From assembly GCA_947303585.1 (NCBI GenBank), contig CAMYYT010000002.1, positions 2,326 through 66,325 of the forward strand: 64,000 nt of DNA, written 5' to 3'. Source of the DNA: an uncultured Pseudomonadota bacterium. GTDB lineage: Bacteria > Pseudomonadota > Alphaproteobacteria > Rs-D84. This document shows, piece by piece, positions 3,952-60,220 of this stretch. Under the pieces are notes generated by a model. That model saw nothing but the letters and a program-made list of their open reading frames with translations, searched no databases and had not been told where the DNA came from. The number at the start of each line of letters is the position of its first letter. Position 1 is the first letter of the stretch. A program made the translations under genes and the position numbers.

Positions 3952-5199
3952 TTAACGAACGGATGCGCTAATATTTTGTGTGCTTTTACTTGTGGCGGAT
4001 GTTCCAGGATTTACGGTTTTAGGTTGTTCTGTCCTTATTCCACGAAGTCCCAATACACAATATTGAAAATCTTCTGGGTCGGTTTTAGACCAGCATTGTG
4101 AACCATTGTTGCCCATAACACCAAATCTTAATTGTTCTTCGCTTAATGTCACTGTGCACCTTTGGTAATTTGATGATGCACTGGTCCCAGTAAACGGACA
4201 ATCATATTGTCCTTGTTCAACAGAACTTTTCCAAAAGTTCCCCCCAGGACAGAATTTTTTTGGATTGCTGCATTTCTGTTGTTGAACACTATTTGCCGGC
4301 AAATAGTAACCCTTGGTAACTTTTATAGATGTTTCTACGCACTCCGTATGGTCAGCATTAGCTTTGGTTCCAATCGGGCATTTATCACACCCATCACCAT
4401 AACCATTTGCAACATAATGTTCATCATCAAAACCATGCTCACTTGTGCAGGCGTCTTTAGGTAAAAGCTTCCCTTGGTCTACGCCTGATGCTTTATGCCA
4501 ACCCCCAAGTTTTTCGGAACCCAAACAAACATATCCCGAAGGACAAGGTGCGCATTCTTCTGTGTCTGCAGGAAGGTACGAACCGGCTAAACATTTTATA
4601 GCTCTCTCAACACATTCTGTTTGAGCTGCGTTTGGTTCTGTCCCATCTGGACACGATTCCACACCCTGATCTTCATCTTTTGGTGTTACCTTTACTTTGG
4701 TTCCAGGGCAATAATAGTTTCTAAGAGCTGGGTCCGCTTTTTCGCAATCTAAACAAAAAACACTATCTTTACAGAACACACATTCACTTTTTCCCCTTGG
4801 TAAATAGGATCCTGGGTCGCATACCAACTCTTTATAGTAAACTTTATCATCAGTAAAAATTGATTTGTAATAACATTGATCCTTCCTGCTTGAGCCTGCA
4901 TCAGAATATGGAAAATCTGCAGGGCATAAACGCCAACCACCACCATGCGTACCCCAGCTAGGCCACCTGTTCGCGCATCCGTCTTCAAACTGGCCTATTG
5001 TAACAGCTTGGTTCCCCCCGCCCTCGCAATAACATCCCGGTTTACACATGTGCCGTTGAGTGTTTAGGCAGACATAACCCGCAGGTGCTTTTTTGTTATT
5101 GCTATTACAGTATGTTGCTGTTGCATACGATGGAACGACTTGTCCGGCCGACGCCATTGTTGCGATACCTAACATCAAAAATGTACGTTTTGTGAACAT
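3952..5199 (-). CDS. Secreted cysteine-rich repeat protein (furin/ephrin-receptor-like repeats); paralog of the giant protein at 41837-47821
   Basis: Signal peptide MFTKRTFLMLGIATMASA. Repeated C..G.YLP....C..CP.G..C modules and a CPADFPYSDAGSSRKDQCYYK motif also present in the 1994-aa protein. Confidence 0.7.
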   Translation of the reverse strand: MFTKRTFLMLGIATMASAGQVVPSYATATYCNSNNKKAPAGYVCLNTQRHMCKPGCYCEGGGNQAVTIGQFEDGCANRWPSWGTHGGGWRLCPADFPYSDAGSSRKDQCYYKSIFTDDKVYYKELVCDPGSYLPRGKSECVFCKDSVFCLDCEKADPALRNYYCPGTKVKVTPKDEDQGVESCPDGTEPNAAQTECVERAIKCLAGSYLPADTEECAPCPSGYVCLGSEKLGGWHKASGVDQGKLLPKDACTSEHGFDDEHYVANGYGDGCDKCPIGTKANADHTECVETSIKVTKGYYLPANSVQQQKCSNPKKFCPGGNFWKSSVEQGQYDCPFTGTSASSNYQRCTVTLSEEQLRFGVMGNNGSQCWSKTDPEDFQYCVLGLRGIRTEQPKTVNPGTSATSKSTQNISASVR

Positions 5200-5295
5200 G
5201 ACTATATAAAAATCCCGGTTCCTTTCTAATAAGTAAAATTATACTATCTTTCCCCGCTTTCCGCAAGGGGAAAATTAAACACAAAAAAATAATCG

Positions 5296-5313
5296 GCGCC
5301 CAGAAGGATTCCC
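5296..5313 (-). repeat. Partial copy of tRNA-Arg 3' end (ggcgcccagaaggattcc)
   Basis: Same 18-19 nt as the 3' acceptor/T-arm end of tRNA-Arg at 5634, about 340 bp away, same orientation. Confidence 0.6.
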
Positions 5314-5464
5314 TCGACACTTTGTGTCTGCGGGGCAACCGTAACGATTTGATTACACTGCGTTTATCAAATCTACTTGTTGTCGAACCTGGGTTCGAAC
5401 CATTATTGTGAACAATAATAAAAATAAAACACGACATAAAGCCGTGTTTAATTTTTATTCTGGC

Positions 5465-5484
5465 GCGCCCAGAAGGATTGTTTC
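5465..5484 (-). repeat. Second partial copy of tRNA-Arg 3' end (tggcgcgcccagaaggattg)
   Basis: Direct repeat of the tRNA-Arg 3' end, 169 bp below the intact tRNA. A hairpin-terminator (5606-5627) separates it from the tRNA. Confidence 0.6.
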
Positions 5485-5633
5485 GCTTCGCTTCACTCCC
5501 TTGGCTCATTCGCTATCGCTCACCGGCATACTGCCGTCTGCCTTTCGCCTGCGGGTCGAACCCTCTGGCCGGGTTCTCATCCTTTGGTAGCACCAGATAA
5601 ATTAAAAACCGGCAAAAGCCGGTTTTGAATTTA

Positions 5634-5710
5634 TGGCGCGCCCAGAAGGATTCGAACCCTCAACCTTCTGATCCGTAGTCAGATGCTCTATCCAATTGAG
5701 CCATGGGCGC
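5634..5710 (-). tRNA. tRNA-Arg (anticodon ACG)
   Basis: Reverse complement folds as a cloverleaf: acceptor GCGCCCA/TGGGCGC, anticodon stem TCTGA/TCAGA with loop CTACGGA, T-loop TTCGAAT, 3' CCA encoded. Confidence 0.85.
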
Positions 5711-5766
5711 AATACTCTGTTATTTTATACTCTTTTGTTTGAATTGCAAGAAAAATTACAACTTTT

Positions 5767-6384
5767 TTATTTGTGCTTGTTTTTTTCGTCATGCATATAT
5801 TTCAAAAGATTAAAATTTGGCAGTTTATAATATATCGAATTAAAATGTTGACGACATACAGATTTATATTGCGATGCGCCAACTTCAACTTGACTGCCAT
5901 CACGAATAACATTGCCGAATTCATCAAAACGCAAATGATGGCTGGCAGAATTAACGCATCCTGGCATTTCACAAACTGTTTCTATTTCGTGTTTTTCTGC
6001 GTTTGCTTCAAATAATCTTTTGGACGCAGGAAACATATTTCCATTGCTGTCCACAACCAACCCATAACAAATTATGGTTGTTTTTGAATTGTCTGCGATT
6101 TCAACCAATTTATCAATGTCTTTTGGCGAAAAAAATTGGACTTCGTCAATCAGTATAAATTGTGTGTCGCGCCGTGGTTTATAACTGTCAAGATTAGGTA
6201 TAGTGCGCGCATCAGTTGATAAACCAATTCTGGAAACAATTTTGCTGGTTGAATCGCGATTATCAACAGACGGTTTTATGACTTCAAATTTATTGCCTGT
6301 GCGTTTCAAGTTGTAAGCATTTATGCAAAGCAGAGCAGATTTAGAAGACGCCATAACCCCGTAATAAAAATGTAATTTTGCCAT
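5767..6384 (-). CDS. tdk: Thymidine kinase
   Basis: MAKLHFYYGVMASSKSALL.. P-loop and C-terminal zinc-ribbon cysteines typical of Tdk. Confidence 0.85.
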   Translation of the reverse strand: MAKLHFYYGVMASSKSALLCINAYNLKRTGNKFEVIKPSVDNRDSTSKIVSRIGLSTDARTIPNLDSYKPRRDTQFILIDEVQFFSPKDIDKLVEIADNSKTTIICYGLVVDSNGNMFPASKRLFEANAEKHEIETVCEMPGCVNSASHHLRFDEFGNVIRDGSQVEVGASQYKSVCRQHFNSIYYKLPNFNLLKYMHDEKNKHK

Positions 6385-8907: not shown

Positions 8908-8937
8908 TTGCAAAAAGGTTATATTTTGTGATATAAT
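8908..8937 (+). promoter_or_regulatory. Sigma70-like promoter TTGCAA-18-TATAAT with extended -10 (TGTGATATAATG)
   Basis: Near-consensus hexamers upstream of the 8961 CDS. Same TTTGTGATATAATG motif recurs at 58337 and 59717. Confidence 0.5.
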
Positions 8938-8960
8938 GTAAAACAACGGTGGGAATAAAT

Positions 8961-23131: not shown

Positions 23132-23232
23132 TTTTTATTAGTTTATAAAACAATATTTCCAATAATGATTTTGTATTACGTCTGATAATATTTTGTAAAT
23201 AAAAAACACCGCCGTTGCCGGCGGTATTTTCC

Positions 23233-23357
23233 GGATGCCCTGAAAGGAAGGAAAGGAGAAAAAGAAATGGGCATCCTAAACTGTCGTTTGAGCCCAAAGT
23301 CCAGAGGAGAGAGAATGTAGGAGGGAGTCTGAAAACTCTGGGCTCGATATAGTCAAA
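23233..23357 (+). ncRNA. Structured purine-rich element (two hairpins with GGA-rich loops); candidate small RNA or cis-regulatory RNA
   Basis: Perfect 8-bp stem GGATGCCC/GGGCATCC enclosing a 28-nt loop gaaaggaaggaaaggagaaaaagaaat. Second nested stem CGTTTGAGCCC../..GGGCTC..TCAAACG with GGAGGGAG loop. Lies between a terminator and the next promoter. Confidence 0.3.
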
Positions 23358-23546
23358 CGATTTTCATCCTTTGACGAATCGAAATATAATACACAAAAAA
23401 GCATTTGTCAAGTATTTTGTCAAAAAAATTTTTTTTGTATATTTTTTTGCTTTTTAACCTAGGAAAACAAACTATTCAACAAAATGTGAAAAATAGCGTA
23501 TTATCAAAGCGTTGAATTGGAAAACCAAGTATAGGAGAAAAAGAAA

Positions 23547-26440: not shown

Positions 26441-26734
26441 ATGTTCGGCTTAAAGAAAAAATGTGGTTGCACAAAAACAGCTGCTAAACCAGCTGCTGCA
26501 AAAAAACCAGTTGCTAAAAAAGCACCTGCAAAAAAACCAGCTGCGAAAAAAGTAGCTGCAAAAAAACCAGTTGCAAAAAAACCAGCTGCAAAAAAAGTAG
26601 TTGCAAAAAAACCAGCTGCTAAAAAAGTAGTTGCAAAAAAACCAGTTGCTAAAAAAGCACCTGCAAAAAAACCAGTTGCTAAAAAAGCACCTGCAAAAAA
26701 AACAGCTGCTAAAAAAGTAGTAAAGAAAAAATAA
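26441..26734 (+). CDS. Histone H1-like lysine/alanine-rich nucleoid protein
   Basis: 13 or more AKKPAAKK-type repeats. Strong RBS GAAAGGAGAGAA. Terminator follows. Confidence 0.75.
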
Positions 26735-41812: not shown

Positions 41813-41838
41813 AAAATCGCCCATTTGGGCGATTTTTT
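41813..41838. terminator. Bidirectional rho-independent terminator
   Basis: AAAATCGCCCAtttgGGCGATTTTTT. Also overlaps the stop of the giant minus-strand gene. Confidence 0.7.
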
Positions 41839-44800
41839 AATTACCAGTTCGTATTTGCCATTTGATTTTATAACCTGTCCGGGCAGTTGCGCTGCTTGGT
41901 ATAGTCAAATGTTCATCATAATAACATTGATTGGTTTCCAGATTATTATTTCCATCATACCAAGTAATGCTGTAAGAATTCGGATTGCAAGGTGGTGCAG
42001 AATTTGGACCATAACTTCCAAACAAAGCGGTTTCGTATTCGCCATTTGAATTTTCTGGTTGGAAAAGAACTTGTATGCACCGTTCTGTGCAAGTTGTCGC
42101 ACAGCTGTTTTGGTCTCCAAAAGCATCCCAATACACCCAATTTGTATCACTGACACTCACTGCAGACGAACCATTAAGATGATATCCGGTCATATTGCAC
42201 CAACATTCTTTGCCAACGCTTAATGTATTAAATGTTCCATTGGTTTTCGGTTCAAACAAATCACCAGATGTAGAATTGCATGACGAACGTCCTTGGATTT
42301 TTGTTCCATTACTGTACACCAATTCAAAAGTTCCTTTGTTCAAACTCGTTGCATCGCCACCAAAGAATTCACCCGTTCCGCTTTGGGTTGAACTATCATT
42401 AGATTTAAATTTGGTTGCAGACAAATTCAAATTTCTAGATGCGTTTATGTAATTAACCAACGGACCATCTGACCAGGGGGTTGTTGCAGTATAACCAGCA
42501 TTGCAGGTAAATGAAGATATAGCACATGCGCCGATTGATTCTGTTTGGGCAACTGTTCCTGGATCGTATATTCTGGTTGCGGCAGTACTGTTTGCATATG
42601 TCACATTCGCACCACGCACAGGATTTATTACCGAACATAAAAGTGTCGCAGGAGATCTGTAGCAGAAAGCAACATCCCTGCTGCCAGCGTCAGAATATGG
42701 GAATTCGCTTGGGCAATCAGATAAACCTTGGGCAAAACTTACTTTTTCCCAAGTTCCGCCAGGGCACCAATGGTTTTGGGGACATGTTGCACACACTGTT
42801 GCATTTGCCGGTAAATATTCACCAGGTGCGCAAGTATACGTTGGTACCGGTGCACCACAAGATTTATTCATCCCAAATGAACCAAATTCGGGTGCTAAGG
42901 CAAGCTGCATGGCACATGCGTTTGCACATTTTTTTTCACAGATACTTATATCAATAAAGTCAGTTTTGAATAGTCTTTCTGCGGGATTTACGGATACTGT
43001 ATTGCCGCTGCCAATTTTATAACTTGTTAAATCGCAATTACAATCATATTTTCCGTTGGCATTAACAGCACACGAAGCGGTTCCGGTAATATCCAATTCA
43101 TTCCAATATACTAACCTGAATGTTCCATTTGTCATGCCGGTTGAATCTCCATAATTCCCGTTAGCACCGCTGCTGTTGTCACTACTGCCATCTATTGCAC
43201 GGTAATAAATATTATGGTTAGAAGTCGAGCTTGGCATACCATACAATGGCGATTCATAATTTGCCAAAGGTCCATCAGTTCCAACTAAAACTTCGCCTGC
43301 ATTACTGCAAGTTGCACCAGTCACCGCACAACCACCAAATGGGGTAACCACACTTCCGCCACCATAATAGTTTCTTTGTGTCACAGGACTGTTCGCATAA
43401 GATACAGATGTCGTATTTAATATTTTCACAAGCGTCGAACAGTCTACGCCTGTTTTATCGTAATAACAAAATGTAACATCTGTCGTTCCTGCATCAGAAG
43501 AAGGATGGTCATCAGGACAAGATTCTCTGCCGTAAGGTTTGTTGGCTGAGATATTGCTGGCAGGTACATCGGTAAAGCCTGGACAATAATAACCAGCCTC
43601 ACAAAGTGTACAAGTTGTTGAATTTGCCGGAAAATAATACCCGGGATCGCAAGAATAGGTTTGTTCTACGCATGCCATCTGTTCACCGTATTCCCCAATA
43701 ATATTGGTTCTGACCGTAGTGTTAGACATAAAATAGGCAACGCATTGTTCTGCGCAATTATCTGTGCAAGTAGCCGGGGACCGTATTGGTACATACACAG
43801 AATTCGCATCGTTAACAGACGTGCTGCCATTACCAATGTCATAACCCGTCATTTGACACCAGCAATACGTATCTGTGCCACCGGCTTTTGCCCCCCCAGA
43901 ATTACCAGATTTAGTTTTGGGAGTGGCTTCTTTATATTCACCAGCGCTGGTACCAGCTGTTGAATTACATGTGGCATCAAGATATATTTGGGTACCATCA
44001 CTCCACGTGATAACGGCAGTTCCATCTGTCATACCGGTTGAATCGCCAAATCCGTTTGCAACACCACTGTTTGCGCCACTGTTACCACTTGCTGCCCTAT
44101 AAAGAGTGCTACTCTTTGAAATACTGTGTGCCTGGTTGACATAGTTTGCCAATGGGCCATTTGATGATGGTTCTTTGACATATCCAGTATCACAAGACAA
44201 ACTGATAATTTCACATGCGCCAATATCTTCCGTTTCTCGACCGGCGTCACTATAAGTGATAGAGCCACTTGATGAATTTGCATAAGTCGCTGTCCCGTTT
44301 GATACAGGATTTATTTTGGAACAAGAATAACTTCCGCTGGTCGAATAACATTGTTGTAGAAAACTTGAACCTGCGTCAGAGTTTGGATATTTAACATTAC
44401 ACGCGATTTTGCCTTGATCATCACTGTCGTTATATGGATAAATTCCACCCGGACAATAGTAGTTTGCCGGACATCCGATGCAGGATGTTGCGTTTTTCGG
44501 TAAATATTGCCCCGCAGGACAAATTATTTGCATAGTTGCCGAACATTCGCCAGAACTGGCCGTCCCAGGTAAAGAATATGGTGTAGAAGTCGGACAAGGG
44601 TACAAACCTTGGTCATCGTCTTCGTCCAGTTCAACATCTGTGACACCTGGGCAATAATAATCTGATGGACAAAGCGCGCAATCTTCGGAATCAGCAGGTA
44701 AATAATAACCTGCATCACAACTGTATGTGAATCCTTGGGGACCTTTGGCACCGTATTTAAAATTACCACCATTACAAGATTTCGCCTTTGGGCAAGATTG

Positions 44801-47800
44801 ACATTTTGTACTTTTTTCTGGCAAATATTCGCCTGCCTCACATTTCGCAGCATAACAATCATCGGCACTTTTTGCACCCAAATCAGACAAAGGGTTGTTT
44901 GAATCTACTTTGGAACATTCGGACAGTCCTTGGTCTTCTTTGTCGTTAAAAGATAATCCTTTGGCACCACTGCAAAAATACCCTTCCCAACAAGGGTCAC
45001 ATTGTGTGCTGCCAGCTTTTAAAAGTTCACCTTCGGCACAATTAATTGTTGCGCTGCATTGTGTGGACGAAGTGGCACCCGCCGGTGAAAACGGTGTTGA
45101 TGTATCGCATTTCGTTATACCTTGGGTTGAAGTGTTATTGGTAAATGTCCCCCCAACACAATAATTTCCCGACGGGCATATGCTGCATACAAATGTTCCG
45201 CCCCCCAGATACGTTCCTGCCAAACAAACAAGGTTTGCCTTGCAATCGCTGCTATCGTCAGAACCAGATTCCGAGAACGGGCTTGTTGTTGGGCATTTTT
45301 CTATACCTTGGTCGTTTGTTTCGCTATATGAATATTTCCCCCCTTTGCAATAAGAACCGGATGGACAAATGTCGCATTTATCAAAGCCCATTGGCAAATA
45401 ATACCCAGTCTCGCAATCAATAGTGTCTGTCTTGGCATAACAATCACTTTCGCCTTTTGCACCCGGGTTTGAATAAGGTGCTGTTGTTGGGCATTGGCTT
45501 AAGCCCTGATCTTTATCCTGACCTTTGTAAAATCCGCCACCTTTGCAATAATATCCTCCCAAACATTCTGCGCATTCATAATCTTTATCTTTTGGCAGAT
45601 ATTCCCCAGCGTTGCAAGTGATGTCGTATATCGTGGCATAACAATCACTTTCACTTTTTGCACCCGGGTTTGAATAAGGTGCTGTTGTTGGGCATTGGTC
45701 TAAGCCATGTTCTTTGTCATCTGGGGTCCATGTGCCACCTTTGCAGTAATATTTTATCCAACATGTTTCACATTTATTGTCCTTGGATAAAAATTCCCCA
45801 GCGCTGCAAGTGATGTCGGTTGTCTTGGCATAACAATCACCATCGCCTTTTGCACCTTTATCAGAATAAGGTTTGTCATCTGGGCATTGGGTTAAACCTT
45901 GGTGGTTTTTATCGTCATACGAATAAGGGCTTTTTGTTCCATCACAATAATAGCCTTCCCAACAAGATTCACAATCTGTTTTTTCTACGGGCAAAAATTC
46001 ACCTTCGGCACAATTAATTGTTGCACTGCATTGTGTGGACGAAGTGGCACCCGCCGGTGAAAACGGTGTTGATGTATCGCATTTCGTTATACCTTGGGTT
46101 GAAGTGTTATTGGTAAATGTCCCCCCAACACAATAATTTCCCGACGGGCATATGCTGCATACAAATGTTCCGCCCCCCAGATACGTTCCTGCCAAACAAA
46201 CAAGGTTTGCCTTGCAATCGCTGCTATCGTCAGAACCAGATTCCGAGAACGGGCTTGTTGTTGGGCATTTTTCTATACCTTGGTCGTTTGTTTCGCTATA
46301 TGGATATTTTCCCCCTTTGCAATAAGAACCAGCAGGACAAGTTCTACAATCGGAGTATGAAAAGGCCGGCAAAAATTCACCCGCTTTACATGTGACCGTG
46401 TCAAAGCAAGAATTTTCATCCGAAGCGCCGATTTTTGAGTAAGGTGCTGTTGTTGGACATTTTTCTATACCTTGATCTTTGGTATTATCAACCGTAACAC
46501 CCTTAATACCACTGCAATAAGAACCAATCGGACAAATGACGCATTTGTTATCGCCTTTGGGTAAATAAGACCCAGTGTCACAACCAATAGTGTCTGTCTT
46601 GGCATAACAATCACCTTTGCCTTTTGCACCTTTATCAGAATAAGGTGTTGCCTCTGGACATTGGTTTAAGCCATGTTCTTTGTCATCTGGGGTCCACGTG
46701 CCACCTTTGCAGTAATAATTTGCCCAACATGTTTCACATTTATTGTCCTTGGATAAAAATTCCCCCGCACCGCAAGTGATGTCGGTTGTCTTGCCATAAC
46801 AATCACCTTCGCCTTTCGCACCTTTATCAGAATAAGGTGCTGTTGTTGGGCATTGGGTTAAACCTTGGTCGTTTTTATCATCATACGAATAAGGGCTTTT
46901 TGTTCCATCACAAAAATATCCTTCCTGACAATCTGTGCACTGAATACCACCTTTCGCCAAAAATACACCGGCACCACAATCAATTGTCGCGCTGCATTGT
47001 GTGGACGAAGTAGCGCCGTCCGGTGAAAACGGTGTCGCGGTATCGCATTTCGTCATACCTTGGGTTGCGGTGTTATTGGTAAATGTTCCGCCACTGCACC
47101 AATAACCAGCCGGACAAGTTGAACAGGTTAGCATGCTTTCCCCCAGATACGTTCCTGCCAAACAAACAAGGTTTGCCTTGCAATCGCTGCTATCGTCAGA
47201 ACCAGATTCCGAGAACGGGCTTGTTGTTGGACATTGTTCTATACCTTGGTCGCCTGTTTCACTATATGGGTATTTTCCCCCTTTGCAATAAGAACCTGCA
47301 GGACAAGTTTTACAATCAGAGTATGAAAAGGCCGGCAAAAATTCACCATTCTTACATGTGGTCGTGTCAAAGCAAGAATTTTCATCTGAAGAGCCGATTT
47401 TTGAGTAAGGTGCTGTTGTTGGGCATTTTTCTATACCTTGGTCTTTGGTATTATCAACCGTAACACCCTTAATACCACTGCAATAAGAACCAATCGGACA
47501 AATGACGCATTTGTTATCGCCTTTGGGTAAATAAGACCCAGTGTCACAACCAATAGTGTCTGTCTTGGCATAACAATCACCTTTGCCTTTTGCACCTTTA
47601 TCAGAATAAGGTGTTGCCTCTGGACATTGGTTTAAGCCATGTTCTTTGTCATCTGGGGTCCACGTGCCACCTTTGCAGTAATAATTTTCCCGACACGTTT
47701 CGCATCCGCCTTCTTTACTTAAAAATTCCCCCGCGTCACAAGTGATGTCGGCACCAAATGCATTAAATGTAAACAAACTAAACAAAGCCAAAAGTGGCGT

Positions 47801-47821
47801 TAACAGTATGATTTTACGCAT
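41837..47821 (-). CDS. Giant secreted cysteine-rich repeat protein (1994 aa), with furin-like/ephrin-receptor-like (GCC2_GCC3-type) repeats in the N-terminal half and CWC-motif modules in the C-terminal half
   Basis: Signal peptide MRKIILLTPLLALFSLFTFNAFGA. Dozens of C..G.Y(L/C)....C..CP.G.YC.GG and QG(I/L).(Q/K)CP...P(Y/F)S..G modules. Three about 322-aa super-repeats. Confidence 0.8.
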   Translation of the reverse strand: MRKIILLTPLLALFSLFTFNAFGADITCDAGEFLSKEGGCETCRENYYCKGGTWTPDDKEHGLNQCPEATPYSDKGAKGKGDCYAKTDTIGCDTGSYLPKGDNKCVICPIGSYCSGIKGVTVDNTKDQGIEKCPTTAPYSKIGSSDENSCFDTTTCKNGEFLPAFSYSDCKTCPAGSYCKGGKYPYSETGDQGIEQCPTTSPFSESGSDDSSDCKANLVCLAGTYLGESMLTCSTCPAGYWCSGGTFTNNTATQGMTKCDTATPFSPDGATSSTQCSATIDCGAGVFLAKGGIQCTDCQEGYFCDGTKSPYSYDDKNDQGLTQCPTTAPYSDKGAKGEGDCYGKTTDITCGAGEFLSKDNKCETCWANYYCKGGTWTPDDKEHGLNQCPEATPYSDKGAKGKGDCYAKTDTIGCDTGSYLPKGDNKCVICPIGSYCSGIKGVTVDNTKDQGIEKCPTTAPYSKIGASDENSCFDTVTCKAGEFLPAFSYSDCRTCPAGSYCKGGKYPYSETNDQGIEKCPTTSPFSESGSDDSSDCKANLVCLAGTYLGGGTFVCSICPSGNYCVGGTFTNNTSTQGITKCDTSTPFSPAGATSSTQCSATINCAEGEFLPVEKTDCESCWEGYYCDGTKSPYSYDDKNHQGLTQCPDDKPYSDKGAKGDGDCYAKTTDITCSAGEFLSKDNKCETCWIKYYCKGGTWTPDDKEHGLDQCPTTAPYSNPGAKSESDCYATIYDITCNAGEYLPKDKDYECAECLGGYYCKGGGFYKGQDKDQGLSQCPTTAPYSNPGAKGESDCYAKTDTIDCETGYYLPMGFDKCDICPSGSYCKGGKYSYSETNDQGIEKCPTTSPFSESGSDDSSDCKANLVCLAGTYLGGGTFVCSICPSGNYCVGGTFTNNTSTQGITKCDTSTPFSPAGATSSTQCSATINCAEGELLKAGSTQCDPCWEGYFCSGAKGLSFNDKEDQGLSECSKVDSNNPLSDLGAKSADDCYAAKCEAGEYLPEKSTKCQSCPKAKSCNGGNFKYGAKGPQGFTYSCDAGYYLPADSEDCALCPSDYYCPGVTDVELDEDDDQGLYPCPTSTPYSLPGTASSGECSATMQIICPAGQYLPKNATSCIGCPANYYCPGGIYPYNDSDDQGKIACNVKYPNSDAGSSFLQQCYSTSGSYSCSKINPVSNGTATYANSSSGSITYSDAGRETEDIGACEIISLSCDTGYVKEPSSNGPLANYVNQAHSISKSSTLYRAASGNSGANSGVANGFGDSTGMTDGTAVITWSDGTQIYLDATCNSTAGTSAGEYKEATPKTKSGNSGGAKAGGTDTYCWCQMTGYDIGNGSTSVNDANSVYVPIRSPATCTDNCAEQCVAYFMSNTTVRTNIIGEYGEQMACVEQTYSCDPGYYFPANSTTCTLCEAGYYCPGFTDVPASNISANKPYGRESCPDDHPSSDAGTTDVTFCYYDKTGVDCSTLVKILNTTSVSYANSPVTQRNYYGGGSVVTPFGGCAVTGATCSNAGEVLVGTDGPLANYESPLYGMPSSTSNHNIYYRAIDGSSDNSSGANGNYGDSTGMTNGTFRLVYWNELDITGTASCAVNANGKYDCNCDLTSYKIGSGNTVSVNPAERLFKTDFIDISICEKKCANACAMQLALAPEFGSFGMNKSCGAPVPTYTCAPGEYLPANATVCATCPQNHWCPGGTWEKVSFAQGLSDCPSEFPYSDAGSRDVAFCYRSPATLLCSVINPVRGANVTYANSTAATRIYDPGTVAQTESIGACAISSFTCNAGYTATTPWSDGPLVNYINASRNLNLSATKFKSNDSSTQSGTGEFFGGDATSLNKGTFELVYSNGTKIQGRSSCNSTSGDLFEPKTNGTFNTLSVGKECWCNMTGYHLNGSSAVSVSDTNWVYWDAFGDQNSCATTCTERCIQVLFQPENSNGEYETALFGSYGPNSAPPCNPNSYSITWYDGNNNLETNQCYYDEHLTIPSSATARTGYKIKWQIRTGN
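44900..47760. repeat. About 970-bp near-identical tandem repeats (about 3 copies) inside the giant gene
   Basis: Opposite-strand ORF fragments beginning 45145 and 46117 encode identical 62-aa peptides. A third copy sits near 47137. Period 966-972 bp. Confidence 0.8.
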
Positions 47822-56904: not shown

Positions 56905-56930
56905 AAGCACCGCATCCGCGGTGTTTTTTT
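56905..56930 (+). terminator. Rho-independent terminator
   Basis: CACCGCatcCGCGGTG + TTTTTTT. Confidence 0.65.
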
Positions 56931-57020: not shown

Positions 57021-58226
57021 TTGATGAAAGTGCTTTTTACATCGATTTTTGCGCTGTTCTTGGCGACTTCAGCGTGGGCCACAGGCGAATTATCGGCGCC
57101 TGCCACTTGTAATACCACGGATCTAGGGGTCAGTTCTGGTACATTAAATGTAGATTTGGTATGGGAAGCAAACAGAATAAACACATCGTGGTATACTGGA
57201 TACGGCGATAATACACAAATAACGGGTGCAAACATCCCAACTTCTTGTAATTACGATTCGGCAATATCTTTGCCTGCTGCGCCATCGCGTCCAGGGTATA
57301 ATTTTGTTGGTTGGACATTAAAATGTTCTTTGCCACCGTTAGATTCGTCAGATACGGGAACAGATTACGGTTATATAAATGGGGACAGCCCGGAACCTTA
57401 TGCAGATAATGCACAAACATATGGGTTAACACAGCCACAAACTTGGGGTGCGACGTTTGTACCTGGAAAAATGACGGGAAGTGCGATGTGCAGTGCTTAC
57501 GCTGGAAATAATCATAATTATGCATGGGGCGGAACATCTTCTGATTGGACGGCAGATACAGCAACTTTGACTGGGACTAGTGGAAGTGCTACCTATTGTT
57601 GGTGTCGCGTTGATGCCTTTACACCAACCAGTGGGCAATGGTGTGATTTTTCACCACAAAAATGGGTGTTTAACCACGGGTTTAATTCGACAACGGGCTG
57701 TTCAGAGGCTTGCGCATCAGAATGCACACAATCATTGCGTGGTATATTAGAATTCCGTGCCGCAGTATACGCCGCCGCTACGCCTGTTTCTGTATGTCGG
57801 ATACCTGCTGCAGTCGCGGCACAAGATATAGGTACTGCAATGGCAGCTAAAAGCTTTTTGGGTGACGCATATAACAATACCTATGGTGGTGCGACACCTG
57901 AAACATATGGTCTGACTCAGGCTGGGCAATGGGGTGTGTCGTGGCAGACTGGTGACAAAGTTGTAGGAGAAGCAATGTGTAGTGCTTCTTCAAGTGGGGT
58001 TCCTGTTGCTTCTACTGGAAATGAAGCTGCGAATTGTTGGTGTAAAGCAACTGGTTATATTTCCGCGAGTAATTCACAGTGTTCTTTTTCTGATTCTTCT
58101 TGGGTCTTGATAAATAATAATGGTGCGGAATATTGTTTACAATGGTGTACATATGAGTGTGCTAACTATGTTAGAACATGGGAAGATATTCGTGTGATGA
58201 TATTAAACGGTCTTTTTGCTCAATAA
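57021..58226 (+). CDS. Secreted cysteine-rich protein sharing the CWC module with the C-terminal half of the giant protein
   Basis: Signal peptide MMKVLFTSIFALFLATSAWA. Motifs ATYCWCRVDAF...QWCDFSPQKWV and AANCWCKATGYIS...CSFSDSSWV parallel TYCWCQMTGYDIG / ECWCNMTGYHLNG in the giant protein. Confidence 0.65.
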   Translation: MMKVLFTSIFALFLATSAWATGELSAPATCNTTDLGVSSGTLNVDLVWEANRINTSWYTGYGDNTQITGANIPTSCNYDSAISLPAAPSRPGYNFVGWTLKCSLPPLDSSDTGTDYGYINGDSPEPYADNAQTYGLTQPQTWGATFVPGKMTGSAMCSAYAGNNHNYAWGGTSSDWTADTATLTGTSGSATYCWCRVDAFTPTSGQWCDFSPQKWVFNHGFNSTTGCSEACASECTQSLRGILEFRAAVYAAATPVSVCRIPAAVAAQDIGTAMAAKSFLGDAYNNTYGGATPETYGLTQAGQWGVSWQTGDKVVGEAMCSASSSGVPVASTGNEAANCWCKATGYISASNSQCSFSDSSWVLINNNGAEYCLQWCTYECANYVRTWEDIRVMILNGLFAQ

Positions 58227-58321
58227 GATAGTTTTTTAATTGTATTTTTACCATAAAATTAAGATTTTATCCGTTCGAAATCACGGGTAAGAATATCCCA
58301 TAAAAAAATTGAAAGAAATTT

Positions 58322-58349
58322 TTGCTTATTGAAAAATTTGTGATATAAT
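58322..58349 (+). promoter_or_regulatory. Promoter TTGCTT-16-TATAAT with extended -10 (TTTGTGATATAATG)
   Basis: No ORF downstream. Transcript would end at the terminator at 58464-58488. Confidence 0.45.
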
Positions 58350-58355
58350 GAAAGT

Positions 58356-58488
58356 GTGAAAGGGTAAAAAGGTATAAAAAATCATCCCGAAAACCCAACA
58401 AGATTGGTGCCGAAAGCACTTCATAAAAGATTTGGTTTTTTCCCTTCCTTAACCAAATAAATGCACCCCATACGGGGTGTTTTTTTTA
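58356..58488 (+). ncRNA. Candidate small RNA (about 130 nt) bounded by a strong promoter and an intrinsic terminator
   Basis: No ORF of 60 aa or more. Internal hairpins (AAAACCCAAC..TTGGTTTT; GGTGCcgaaaGCAC). Terminator CACCCCatacGGGGTG + TTTTTTTTT. Confidence 0.35.
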
Positions 58489-58522
58489 AATTCTCCCCAC
58501 GGGGGGCGCAGGGCGATGGGGG

Positions 58523-59671
58523 TTATCCCGCATTTTTTCCTGCGACAAAACCGCTGCTGAATGCCCACTGAATATTAAAACCACCCAAATCGCCAGTTAT
58601 ATCCATAACTTCGCCTGCAAAAAACAAACCGGGGCAAATCTTTGATTCCATTGTTTTTGATGATATTTTATCGACAGACACTCCGCCCATCATTACTTCT
58701 GCGCTTGTGAATCCAATCGCTGTACCATCCATAATTTCAAAATGATTTATCCTTGTAGCAATTTGTTTTAATTCGCCGTCTTTTAAATCTGCGATGTTTC
58801 GTGTGTCATTGCAAAAAAAGTGCGCCAATTTATTTGGCAAAATTTCAGCCACCACATTTGCCACAGATTTCTTGCCGTTCGTTTGTTTTGTGCTTTTCAA
58901 TAATTCAAAAACGTTTTTGTTCGGTGCAAAATTTATAATCATTTCTTTTGGGTTTATCAAAGTTGCACGATAAGCCGCCGGTCCACCAATACCAAAATGA
59001 GTAAACAATAAATCATCAACAATTTTATGTTTATCAACGATAATTTCTGCTTTCAAAGATATGCCAGAAAGCTCGGAATCAAATGCCTTGGTTTTAATCG
59101 CACACAGTGCAGGACGCACCGGTTCGATTTTATGACCGAATTTTTTAGCAATCGTTTGTCCGGTACTTGATACCAGTAAGTGCGGGTACGAAATGCCACC
59201 TGTTGCAACGATAACAGATTGCGAATAAAAATCGCCATTGGTTGTTTTTATCGTGAAAAAATCGTTTTCTTTTTCAATATCAATTACATTAGTATTGTAT
59301 TTTATCAGGGTGTTTTTTAGGTCACTTAAAAGTGCGTTTAAAATATCTTTGGCACCATCGCGACAAAAATATCGTCCTGGTTCTTTTTCAATATATTTTA
59401 TATTGTGTGCTTTTGCCCAATTTAATGTATCGTGTGGCGAAAACTGTGTAAGAGCTGACATAACAAACCGCGGGTTTTTACCAAAATAGTGTGAAAAATC
59501 CGCCTTTGAATTCGTAAAATTGCAATTGCCACCACCAGAAACAGCAACTTTGCGAGCAGGTTCGTTTCCCATATCAAGAATTAATACGGCTTTTTTGCGC
59601 CTTAACAATTGTGCTGCCGCCATTAATCCGGCCGCACCTGCACCAATAATAACAGTATCAAATATTTTCAT
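58523..59671 (-). CDS. HI0933-like FAD-dependent flavoprotein (BaiN/aminoacetone oxidase family)
   Basis: N-terminal Rossmann GAGAAG (VIIGAGAAGLMAA), family-typical C-terminal region. Confidence 0.75.
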   Translation of the reverse strand: MKIFDTVIIGAGAAGLMAAAQLLRRKKAVLILDMGNEPARKVAVSGGGNCNFTNSKADFSHYFGKNPRFVMSALTQFSPHDTLNWAKAHNIKYIEKEPGRYFCRDGAKDILNALLSDLKNTLIKYNTNVIDIEKENDFFTIKTTNGDFYSQSVIVATGGISYPHLLVSSTGQTIAKKFGHKIEPVRPALCAIKTKAFDSELSGISLKAEIIVDKHKIVDDLLFTHFGIGGPAAYRATLINPKEMIINFAPNKNVFELLKSTKQTNGKKSVANVVAEILPNKLAHFFCNDTRNIADLKDGELKQIATRINHFEIMDGTAIGFTSAEVMMGGVSVDKISSKTMESKICPGLFFAGEVMDITGDLGGFNIQWAFSSGFVAGKNAG

Positions 59672-59712: not shown

Positions 59713-59731
59713 TTGCGTTTTGTGATATAAT
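59713..59731 (+). promoter_or_regulatory. Extended -10 promoter element (TTTTGTGATATAATG) upstream of deaminase gene
   Basis: Third copy of the shared motif. RBS AAGGAAAAAG before ATG 59756. Confidence 0.4.
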
Positions 59732-59755
59732 GTTTGTAAAAATAAGGAAAAAGAT

Positions 59756-60220
59756 ATGAATATATATATGGAAAGTGCAAAAAAATTAGCAGAAAAAAAT
59801 CTTAAAACACACAATGGCGGACCTTTTGGTGCAGTTGTTGTTAAAAATGGCAAAATAATCGGTCGTGCATCAAATTGTGTTATAAAAAATAATGACCCAA
59901 CGGCACATGCAGAAATAATGGCTATACGTGCGGCATGTGCAAAGATTAAATCTTATGATTTAAGTGGGTGTGAATTATACACTTCGTGTTATCCTTGTCC
60001 GATGTGTTTGTCTGCAATTATGTGGGCGAATATAAAAACTGTTTATTATGGAAATACAAAACAAGACGCTGCAAATATTGGTTTTCGTGATGATTTTATG
60101 TATGAATATCTAAAAAATTTGAAAAATACCAAAGTGTTAAAATTAAAGCCTTTGAATCGCAAAGAAACAATAAAAACATTTGATGATTTTACAAAACAAA
60201 AAAACAAGATAATATATTAA
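59756..60220 (+). CDS. Nucleoside deaminase of the CDA/dCMP-deaminase fold (guanine deaminase GuaD-like)
   Basis: GGPFGAVVV..., zinc motifs HAE and PCPMC (..DPTAHAEIMAIRAAC.. LYTSCYPCPMCLSAIMWA..). Confidence 0.75.
   Translation: MNIYMESAKKLAEKNLKTHNGGPFGAVVVKNGKIIGRASNCVIKNNDPTAHAEIMAIRAACAKIKSYDLSGCELYTSCYPCPMCLSAIMWANIKTVYYGNTKQDAANIGFRDDFMYEYLKNLKNTKVLKLKPLNRKETIKTFDDFTKQKNKIIY

Follow-up and report, generated by a model that had tools for sequence, protein, structure and literature searches.

The DNA examined here is a 64,000-nt stretch (hereafter the window) of contig CAMYYT010000002.1, from the genome assembly of an uncultured alphaproteobacterium of the GTDB lineage Rs-D84 (GCA_947303585.1). 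The 296-nt spacer between the 3′ ends of two convergent genes, which encode a secreted Cys-rich protein and a flavoprotein, contains a compact unit at 58322-58487 on the plus strand. Direct reading of the sequence shows a TTGCTT hexamer and, 16 nt on, the TATAAT of a TGnTATAAT motif; an intrinsic terminator follows after a further ~105 nt. Based on its conservation in 11 variants, we consider this unit to be a real, selected, non-coding RNA gene, with a probability of roughly 0.8. As judged by sequence, it represents a new small RNA (sRNA) family of a known kind, whose carriers form a narrow clade among uncultured Alphaproteobacteria of gut and rumen. We also lean, with less assurance, towards the combined statement that the unit is a non-coding sRNA gene and that its exposed loop would occlude ribosome-binding sites.

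Conservation of the unit among relatives

Relatives were sought by using the flavoprotein as an anchor in GTDB genomes, followed by blastn of the spacer, protein searches, neighbourhood look-ups and nhmmer. The anchor places the organism as an uncultured alphaproteobacterium of gut and rumen, near metagenome-assembled genomes labelled 'Candidatus Enterousia'. In one related locus (L001), the block corresponding to 58309-58489 is 94.5% identical by blastn, the surrounding spacer is unalignable, and the block lies about 650 nt from the flavoprotein stop codon, with G+C-rich repeat insertions between. A second relative (L007) carries the block minus its 5′ third, and a 21-mer query of Joint Genome Institute (JGI) metagenomes returned one contig with the unit, from rumen (L041). 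Using nhmmer, we found exactly one copy per locus wherever the flavoprotein is at least 80% identical to that of the window, and in some cases at 79%. Every relative that has the unit has it at the same site, between the flavoprotein stop codon and the Cys-rich gene. The window and 10 other sequences, from genome and metagenome assemblies of uncultured 'Candidatus Enterousia'-like Alphaproteobacteria, provided the 11 distinct variants (alignment A3) on which the following comparisons are based.

The unit is absent at this site in L002-L006, L008 and L009, whose flavoproteins are 66-78% identical to that of the window, and in L060-L063 (78-79% identical). In these more distant relatives, the Cys-rich gene is either lacking or short, or lies directly against the flavoprotein gene. 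A blastn search of the unit against the window revealed no second copy. Plasmid and phage collections held no match to the unit, and thus gave no sign of a mobile origin; a 17-mer loop pattern had 25 matches in viral contigs, without any sign of homology, although these were not compared with the unit; the pattern was used solely to gauge the chance rate. Weak matches of 22-34 bits to our covariance model (R1), from the window as well as from relatives without the unit, were rejected as homologues: they correspond to terminators and the 3′ coding end of rne, the RNase E gene, and lack the third hairpin described below.

Variation is spread very unevenly over the unit. Among the 11 variants, 5 of 28 columns vary in the promoter (58322-58349) and 23 of 50, with indels, in the 5′ domain (58350-58399); the figures are 8 of 25 for the region of hairpin 2 (58400-58424), 1 of 38 for the linker and hairpin 3 (58425-58462; hereafter the core) and 7 of 18 for the terminator stem-loop (58463-58480). 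As a neutral yardstick, we used the four-fold degenerate sites of the adjacent flavoprotein gene in the same genomes, of which 20 of 97 are invariant (mean pairwise identity 0.605, range 0.42-0.72 for the first four genomes). Against this baseline, the 37 invariant columns of the 38 in the core have a binomial P of ~1e-24, and the 23 invariant promoter columns (of 28) a P of ~6e-12. The promoter hexamers, their spacing and the extended TG are kept in 11/11 variants, with TTGATT and TACAAT as the sole hexamer variants. Nucleotide conservation of the core even exceeds that of the flanking rne gene (85-92% nucleotide identity).

The 5′ domain, with a pairwise identity of 0.80 plus indels, and the invariant core lie together within ~130 nt. 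Because rates differ in this way inside a single unit, fast in the 5′ domain and nil in the core, we attribute the identity to purifying selection and not to recent transfer. The alignment shows strong purifying selection on the unit at the nucleotide level, and it is this conservation, not any single sequence, that argues for more than chance. A preliminary description of this DNA, made from the window's letters, had named conservation and covariation in relatives among the checks to make; the invariant core and promoter columns, together with the preserved pairing reported below, bear that description out.

The predicted transcript and its structure

The promoter consists of the −35 hexamer TTGCTT (58322-58327), a 16-nt spacer that ends in TGA (58328-58343, with the extended TG at 58341-58342) and the −10 hexamer TATAAT (58344-58349), all read on the plus strand. 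It had been described as strong. This is fitting for the −10, which is a perfect extended TGnTATAAT, but the −35 is weaker than the description implied: it agrees with TTGACA at only 3/6 positions, which explains why the promoter is absent from the list produced by our consensus scan. TGnTATAAT has 10 occurrences in the window on both strands, and is thus not rare by chance; likewise, the scan found promoter-like and terminator-like sites about as often in the window as in shuffles. None of the three features, promoter match, terminator or fold, is remarkable by itself. Immediately 5′ of the −35, the A/T-rich stretch AAAGAAATTTT (58309-58321, plus strand) is partly conserved, with T11, A13-A15, A17-A19 and T21-T24 of alignment A3 invariant in the 11 variants, and may serve as an UP-like element. 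The −10 block of the promoter, the 14-mer TTTGTGATATAATG, recurs at 8925-8938 and 59719-59732 on the plus strand, at promoter distance before protein-coding genes; the copy at 59719 precedes a dCMP/cytidine deaminase-like gene at 59756. This form of extended −10 appears to be a preferred promoter type used in this organism.

At the other end of the unit, both reading of the sequence and a terminator scan identify a canonical intrinsic terminator on the plus strand, as previously described, with a CACCCC-AUAC-GGGGUG stem-loop (58464-58479) and a tail of eight U (58480-58487), not the nine of the earlier account. With the 5′ end placed by the position of the −10 and the 3′ end by the terminator, the predicted transcript runs from 58356 to 58487 on the plus strand (~132 nt). 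Its predicted architecture is alike in all 11 variants; in two relatives, L007 and L052, the transcript would measure ~99 nt.

In every variant, the RNA is predicted to form the same succession of hairpins. The first, the 5′ hairpin (58362-58396), has an outer GGGU/ACCC stem in the fold predictions and a variable inner stem, which is GG..CC in one group of variants and AAAGA..UCUUU in another, predicted to be paired in both. A 34-38-nt deletion in L007 and L052 removes this hairpin, which is seemingly dispensable, being deleted in these two variants. Hairpin 2 (58406-58420) pairs GGUGC with GCACU and closes a loop of 5 nt, or of 7 nt in the case of L007 and L052; comparative pairing backs this stem, which had already been drawn from the single sequence as GGTGC-cgaaa-GCAC(T). 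It is followed by an A-rich linker, UCAUAAAAG (58421-58429), which is unpaired in all folds and invariant from 58423 onwards; position 58422 is C, T or A. Hairpin 3 (58430-58458) has a predicted 8-bp stem, AUUUGGUU/AACCAAAU, and a 13-nt loop, UUUUCCCUUCCUU, at 58438-58450. It is 100% identical in the 11 variants, and the CCCUUCC within its loop has a mean P(unpaired) of 0.92-1.00 in every one of them. A further hairpin of the preliminary description, AAAACCCAAC...TTGGTTTT, was rejected, since the minimum-free-energy folds do not contain it and two relatives have lost its 5′ arm.

Analysis with RNAalifold and pair counting showed that 23 pairs are kept in all 11 sequences (253/253 cells paired). 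In hairpin 2, three of the five pairs vary on one side only, with pairing kept (GU to AU, GC to GU and CG to UG). Such wobble solutions pair only in RNA of the plus strand, and thus provide a plus-strand RNA signature. The terminator contributes one compensatory pair, CG to GC, in L044, L055 and L057. The loops are freer to vary: that of the terminator is ATAC, ATCC, ATCT or GCAA, and that of hairpin 2 is CGAAA, TAAAA or CCATAAA.

The pyrimidine loop and a possible mode of action

The invariant loop UUUUCCCUUCCUU is complementary to AAGGAAGGGAAAA and to AAGGAAGG(G). The AAGGAA motif is the common ribosome-binding motif in the window, where it stands at the proper distance before 13 starts of long open reading frames (ORFs); AGGAGG occurs once in 128 kb (both window strands), and never as a ribosome-binding site. 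AAGGAAGG itself is found 5-10 nt before the starts of a thymidine kinase gene (6384, minus strand) and a 149-aa ORF (10054, plus strand). A third occurrence, at 23244 on the plus strand, was rejected as a target or sponge, because it is the antisense of a second RNA with a C/U-rich loop on the minus strand (see below). These features suggest, as the most likely mode of action, a model in which the unit would encode a trans-acting, base-pairing sRNA, with the hairpin 3 loop UUUUCCCUUCCUU as the putative seed, or anti-Shine-Dalgarno region. The exposed CCUUCCUU loop would pair with purine-rich, AAGGAAGG-type ribosome-binding sites on target mRNAs and block binding of the 30S subunit, and altered mRNA stability may follow as a secondary effect. 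Given an RNA gene, we judge the odds of ribosome-binding-site occlusion to be about even. When the loop is paired with true start regions, the best predicted duplexes come to about −12.9 kcal/mol, against a mean of −5.2 (standard deviation 2.6) over 486 candidate start regions in the 64 kb; these energies are suggestive, and not outstanding.

The unit has the generic features of trans-encoded sRNAs, namely its own promoter, a Rho-independent terminator, an intergenic position and no conserved ORF, as well as a conserved, accessible single-stranded candidate seed, the loop being invariant and unpaired with a probability of 0.92-1.0. Hfq-binding modules consist of a terminator hairpin with a U tail of at least six residues and an A/U-rich single strand 5′ of the hairpin. 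The corresponding parts of the unit are AAAUAAAU, the hairpin and U8, with a U tail of 6-8 across variants. Together with the A-rich linker, this A/U-rich single strand and the U tail show the usual layout for binding of a chaperone, a permissive observation and not proof. A motif scan found no Hfq gene in the 64-kb window, a result that says nothing about the genome at large.

The unit does not belong to any family in Rfam. At gathering thresholds, Rfam 15 recognized only 5 tRNAs in the whole window, and relaxing E up to 10 on 58150-58600 returned only noise, far below threshold (CRISPR-DR35, 19.2 bits; C0465, 15.6 bits; GNAS-AS1_3, 12.1 bits); ARAGORN found nothing in the spacer. The Rfam scan recommended in the preliminary description thus leaves the unit as neither 6S, SRP, tmRNA nor a curated alphaproteobacterial sRNA. 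The nearest likeness is to the cuckoo RNAs (alpha-r14/RSs0680/SmelC397, RF02344) of Rhizobiales and Rhodobacterales, which are built of two to four adjacent hairpins, each with CCUCCUCCC, on highly variable stems; their loops are C/U-rich and anti-Shine-Dalgarno-like, and are proposed to act by occluding ribosome-binding sites (PMC4615179). Like them, the unit is a predicted alphaproteobacterial, ORF-less and independently transcribed sRNA of hairpins with a pyrimidine loop that resembles an anti-Shine-Dalgarno sequence. It differs in having one pyrimidine-loop hairpin, a different motif (UUUUCCCUUCCUU) and an invariant stem, and in coming from an uncultured gut and rumen lineage instead of Rhizobiales or Rhodobacterales. 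We rejected membership in RF02344, given the single UUUUCCCUUCCUU loop, the absence of CCUCCUCCC and the lack of a match at E up to 10. The stems typical of cuckoo RNAs, which vary strongly, with many compensatory changes around a loop motif that alone is conserved, are likewise not seen, the hairpin 3 stem being invariant in the 11 variants, although the narrow clade sampled makes this a weak test.

Exposed C-rich loops are also known from Firmicutes. In Staphylococcus aureus, the UCCC loops of RNAIII hairpins and Rsa RNAs are thought to start pairing with the ribosome-binding sites of targets, and occlusion of ribosome-binding sites by C-rich loops is an established sRNA mechanism (PMC4615179). 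The unit shares the exposed C-rich hairpin loop with these RNAs, but they belong to an unrelated phylum and have no sequence or structural homology to it. In addition, its motif is longer than UCCC and U-rich, and suits the AAGGAA-type sites of a low-GC genome.

The window holds a second ORF-less unit, at 23200-23411 on the minus strand, with TTGACA, a 17-nt spacer and TATATT (11/12 matches) and a terminator with U6. Its fold is very stable (−69.4 kcal/mol, z = −6.43) and includes two large hairpins with the pyrimidine loops CUCCCUCCUACAUUCUCUCUCC and AUUUCUUUUUCUCCUUUCCUUCCUUUCA, the latter of which contains the CCUUCCUU 8-mer. Rfam gave only sub-threshold matches for this unit; the best alphaproteobacterial one was RF02356, BjrC1505 (21.9 bits against a threshold of 50, E 0.05), a weak likeness in hairpin order and terminator that does not amount to a match. 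This second unit probably encodes a further sRNA with an anti-Shine-Dalgarno-type loop, larger than the first. Apart from reverse complements of ribosome-binding sites, the two units hold the only long pyrimidine tracts in the non-coding parts of the window, which supports the idea that pyrimidine-loop sRNAs are a design used in this organism. One could go further, and propose that both RNAs with CCUUCCUU loops are lineage-specific mimics of the 16S anti-Shine-Dalgarno sequence and act as global competitors for AAGGAA(GG) sites. We consider this extension quite improbable. If true, the RNAs would form a general translational throttle of a small, low-GC gut symbiont genome instead of a target-specific regulator; one of the two would be physically linked to a hypervariable cassette for a secreted surface protein and transcribed in part together with it.

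Alternative explanations and genomic setting

Could the unit encode a very small protein? As the preliminary description stated, there is no ORF of 60 aa or more between promoter and terminator; none appears in the ORF list. The small ORFs present encode 18 aa on the plus strand and 32 and 50 aa on the minus strand. Either the 18-codon plus-strand ORF (LVPKALHKRFGFFPSLTK) or a short minus-strand ORF might be translated, and it is true that nine of the 11 variants have a 17-18-codon ORF, the other two having an 18-codon ATG ORF over the same DNA. However, the two versions use different frames of the invariant core and specify unrelated peptides, the 18-codon plus-strand ORF begins with TTG or GTG and lacks a ribosome-binding site, and all ORF substitutions are non-synonymous (H to Y, H to N and L to F). 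The minus-strand ORFs are missing or truncated in most variants. Across the 11 variants no small ORF is conserved: indels that are not multiples of three break them, and in L007 and L052 every one is shifted or lost through a 2-nt loop insertion, which puts the 18-codon ORF in another frame, and a deletion of 34-38 nt. As far as sequence can tell, the unit is not protein-coding, and we regard a small-protein gene as very improbable. We give equally little credence to the notion that there is no unit at all, and that a terminator shared by the convergent genes happens to lie beside a chance promoter in an A/T-rich spacer, or that the conserved block is a DNA element, such as a recombination anchor for the Cys-rich cassette or a protein-binding site. 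The 10 copies of TGnTATAAT and the ordinary frequency of promoter-like sites are in keeping with this notion, as are the non-significant fold, a hairpin that is terminator-like on the minus strand as well, and the variability of a region in which some relatives have an absent or short Cys-rich gene. It leaves unexplained, however, the 37/38 invariant core columns and 23/28 invariant promoter columns, the strand-specific wobble substitutions and a nucleotide conservation above that of rne (85-92%), and it sits poorly with the finding that the unit is intact in L001 and L049 despite inserted repeats of ~250-650 nt before the flavoprotein gene.

The remaining alternatives accept a functional RNA and differ as to its origin or its action. 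The conserved block might be a 3′ untranslated region (UTR) element of the Cys-rich mRNA that acts in cis, its hairpins and terminator serving to stabilise or regulate this message, or an sRNA processed from read-through, with the promoter being secondary. The window and four other variants lack a separate Cys-rich terminator before the unit, so that transcripts reading through from this gene would stop at the terminator of the unit, which in these five probably also ends the Cys-rich mRNA; moreover, every locus with the unit also has a Cys-rich gene followed by a spacer. Yet in 6/11 variants the Cys-rich gene is separately terminated, by a good intrinsic terminator that follows its stop codon and precedes the −35 of the unit, so in these six the unit needs a promoter of its own. 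The promoter is also conserved far above the neutral baseline, and the core is invariant next to a hypervariable Cys-rich gene, whose products share 33-59% amino acid identity. We thus regard a purely 3′ UTR-derived element as unlikely. A location in a 3′ UTR and an own promoter are in any case compatible, so the two readings need not exclude each other. Known sRNAs such as MicL and DapZ lie in a 3′ UTR and nevertheless have their own promoter; in the window and the four similar variants, the unit likewise would share a terminator with the upstream gene and keep its own promoter. It differs from the MicL/DapZ type in that its promoter lies downstream of the stop codon and not within coding sequence, and in that the upstream gene is separately terminated in six variants. 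The independent, non-coding sRNA proposed in the preliminary description is in agreement with the conserved promoter, core and terminator, the plus-strand RNA pattern, the lack of a conserved ORF and the separate upstream terminator in 6/11 variants. Alternatively, the unit might specify a structured RNA that serves as a sponge or decoy, binding or titrating some protein or a second RNA instead of pairing with ribosome-binding sites (for example, a pyrimidine-loop decoy for an RNA-binding protein). The linker and the whole of hairpin 3, stem included, are invariant beyond what a base-pairing seed needs, and the 64 kb contain no outstanding mRNA target, both of which this explanation would accommodate. 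Known protein-titrating RNAs such as CsrB and RsmZ carry many repeats, whereas the unit has a single motif copy per RNA, and its loop is exactly complementary to the type of ribosome-binding site found in this genome; titration is, in our estimation, rather improbable.

Several observations weigh against a selected sRNA gene that acts by pairing of its loop. Folded as a single sequence, the 133-nt transcript shows no significant stability (z = −1.66, with 12/200 shuffles as good), and folding of the whole spacer gives z values of −0.8 and 0.0 on the two strands, neither of them significant. Covariation rests on few events, one double change and four one-sided ones, and the double change could itself reflect gene conversion instead of independent compensation: the terminator variant that carries it in L044, L055 and L057, CACCGCATCCGCGGTG, is identical to the window's rne terminator, 1.5 kb away. 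As for hairpin 3, its complete invariance leaves the structure without covariation support and, stem included, exceeds the need of a seed-plus-stem model. The target scan of the 64 kb yielded no outstanding mRNA candidate. Lastly, in the DNA examined the putative RNA is confined to a narrow clade, and is absent at the site from close relatives.

The coordinates of the flanking genes place the unit where the preliminary description had put it. Upstream, the secreted Cys-rich protein gene (401 aa, 57021-58226, plus strand) has a weak List_Bact_rpt domain; downstream lies the HI0933-like flavoprotein gene (382 aa, 58523-59671, minus strand). An exact-sequence look-up of both proteins found no record. 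The unit's hairpin, being terminator-like on the minus strand too, may also end the flavoprotein gene. The Cys-rich protein has a signal-peptide-like N-terminus and is hypervariable between strains, with 27-59% amino acid identity and lengths of 255-544 aa (L001, 6213-7445; L003, L005, L007 and L042-L057). The RNase E encoded next to it is 95-99% identical between strains. In some relatives the Cys-rich gene is missing and the flavoprotein gene directly faces rne, with the rne terminator adjoining the flavoprotein stop codon. The locus behaves like a variable surface-protein cassette. In the window, the rne terminator (GCACCGCATCCGCGGTG plus T7, 56907-56930, plus strand) is near-identical to the sRNA terminator and identical to the L044/L055/L057 variant; the sRNA terminator may descend from, or exchange with, that of rne.

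Short G+C-rich palindromic repeats of the TTCTCCCCC..GGGGGAG...GGAGGGGGG type are inserted around the unit in varying number, at 58489-58522 in the window, at 5150-5800 and 5990-6180 in L001 (many copies) and at 975-1100 in L007 (three in tandem). They are conspicuous in a genome of 36% G+C and look like repetitive extragenic palindromic (REP) sequences or miniature inverted-repeat transposable elements (MITEs). Just 3′ of the Cys-rich stop codon, the hairpin ATCCGTTCGAAATCACGGGT (58263-58298, plus strand) accounts for the CRISPR-DR35 match (19.2 bits against a threshold of 35, E 0.38), which is most likely noise; it has neither a repeat array nor a T-run. Elsewhere in the window, blastn listings hint at a tandem repeat around 26500-26680, where short words recur every 15-30 nt, and at repeated domains around 45100-47450 (spacings of ~970 and ~190 nt), within a 1994-aa ORF at 41837-47821 on the minus strand.

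We know of no RNA regulators in the 'Candidatus Enterousia'-like lineage, although no literature search for them was made. An sRNA gene with a clear candidate seed would provide an entry point to post-transcriptional regulation in these organisms. The gain is incremental, in that new sRNA families of this kind are to be expected in any unexplored lineage. The unit would also indicate that the C/U-rich anti-Shine-Dalgarno loop is a recurrent sRNA design among Alphaproteobacteria beyond Rhizobiales and Rhodobacterales.

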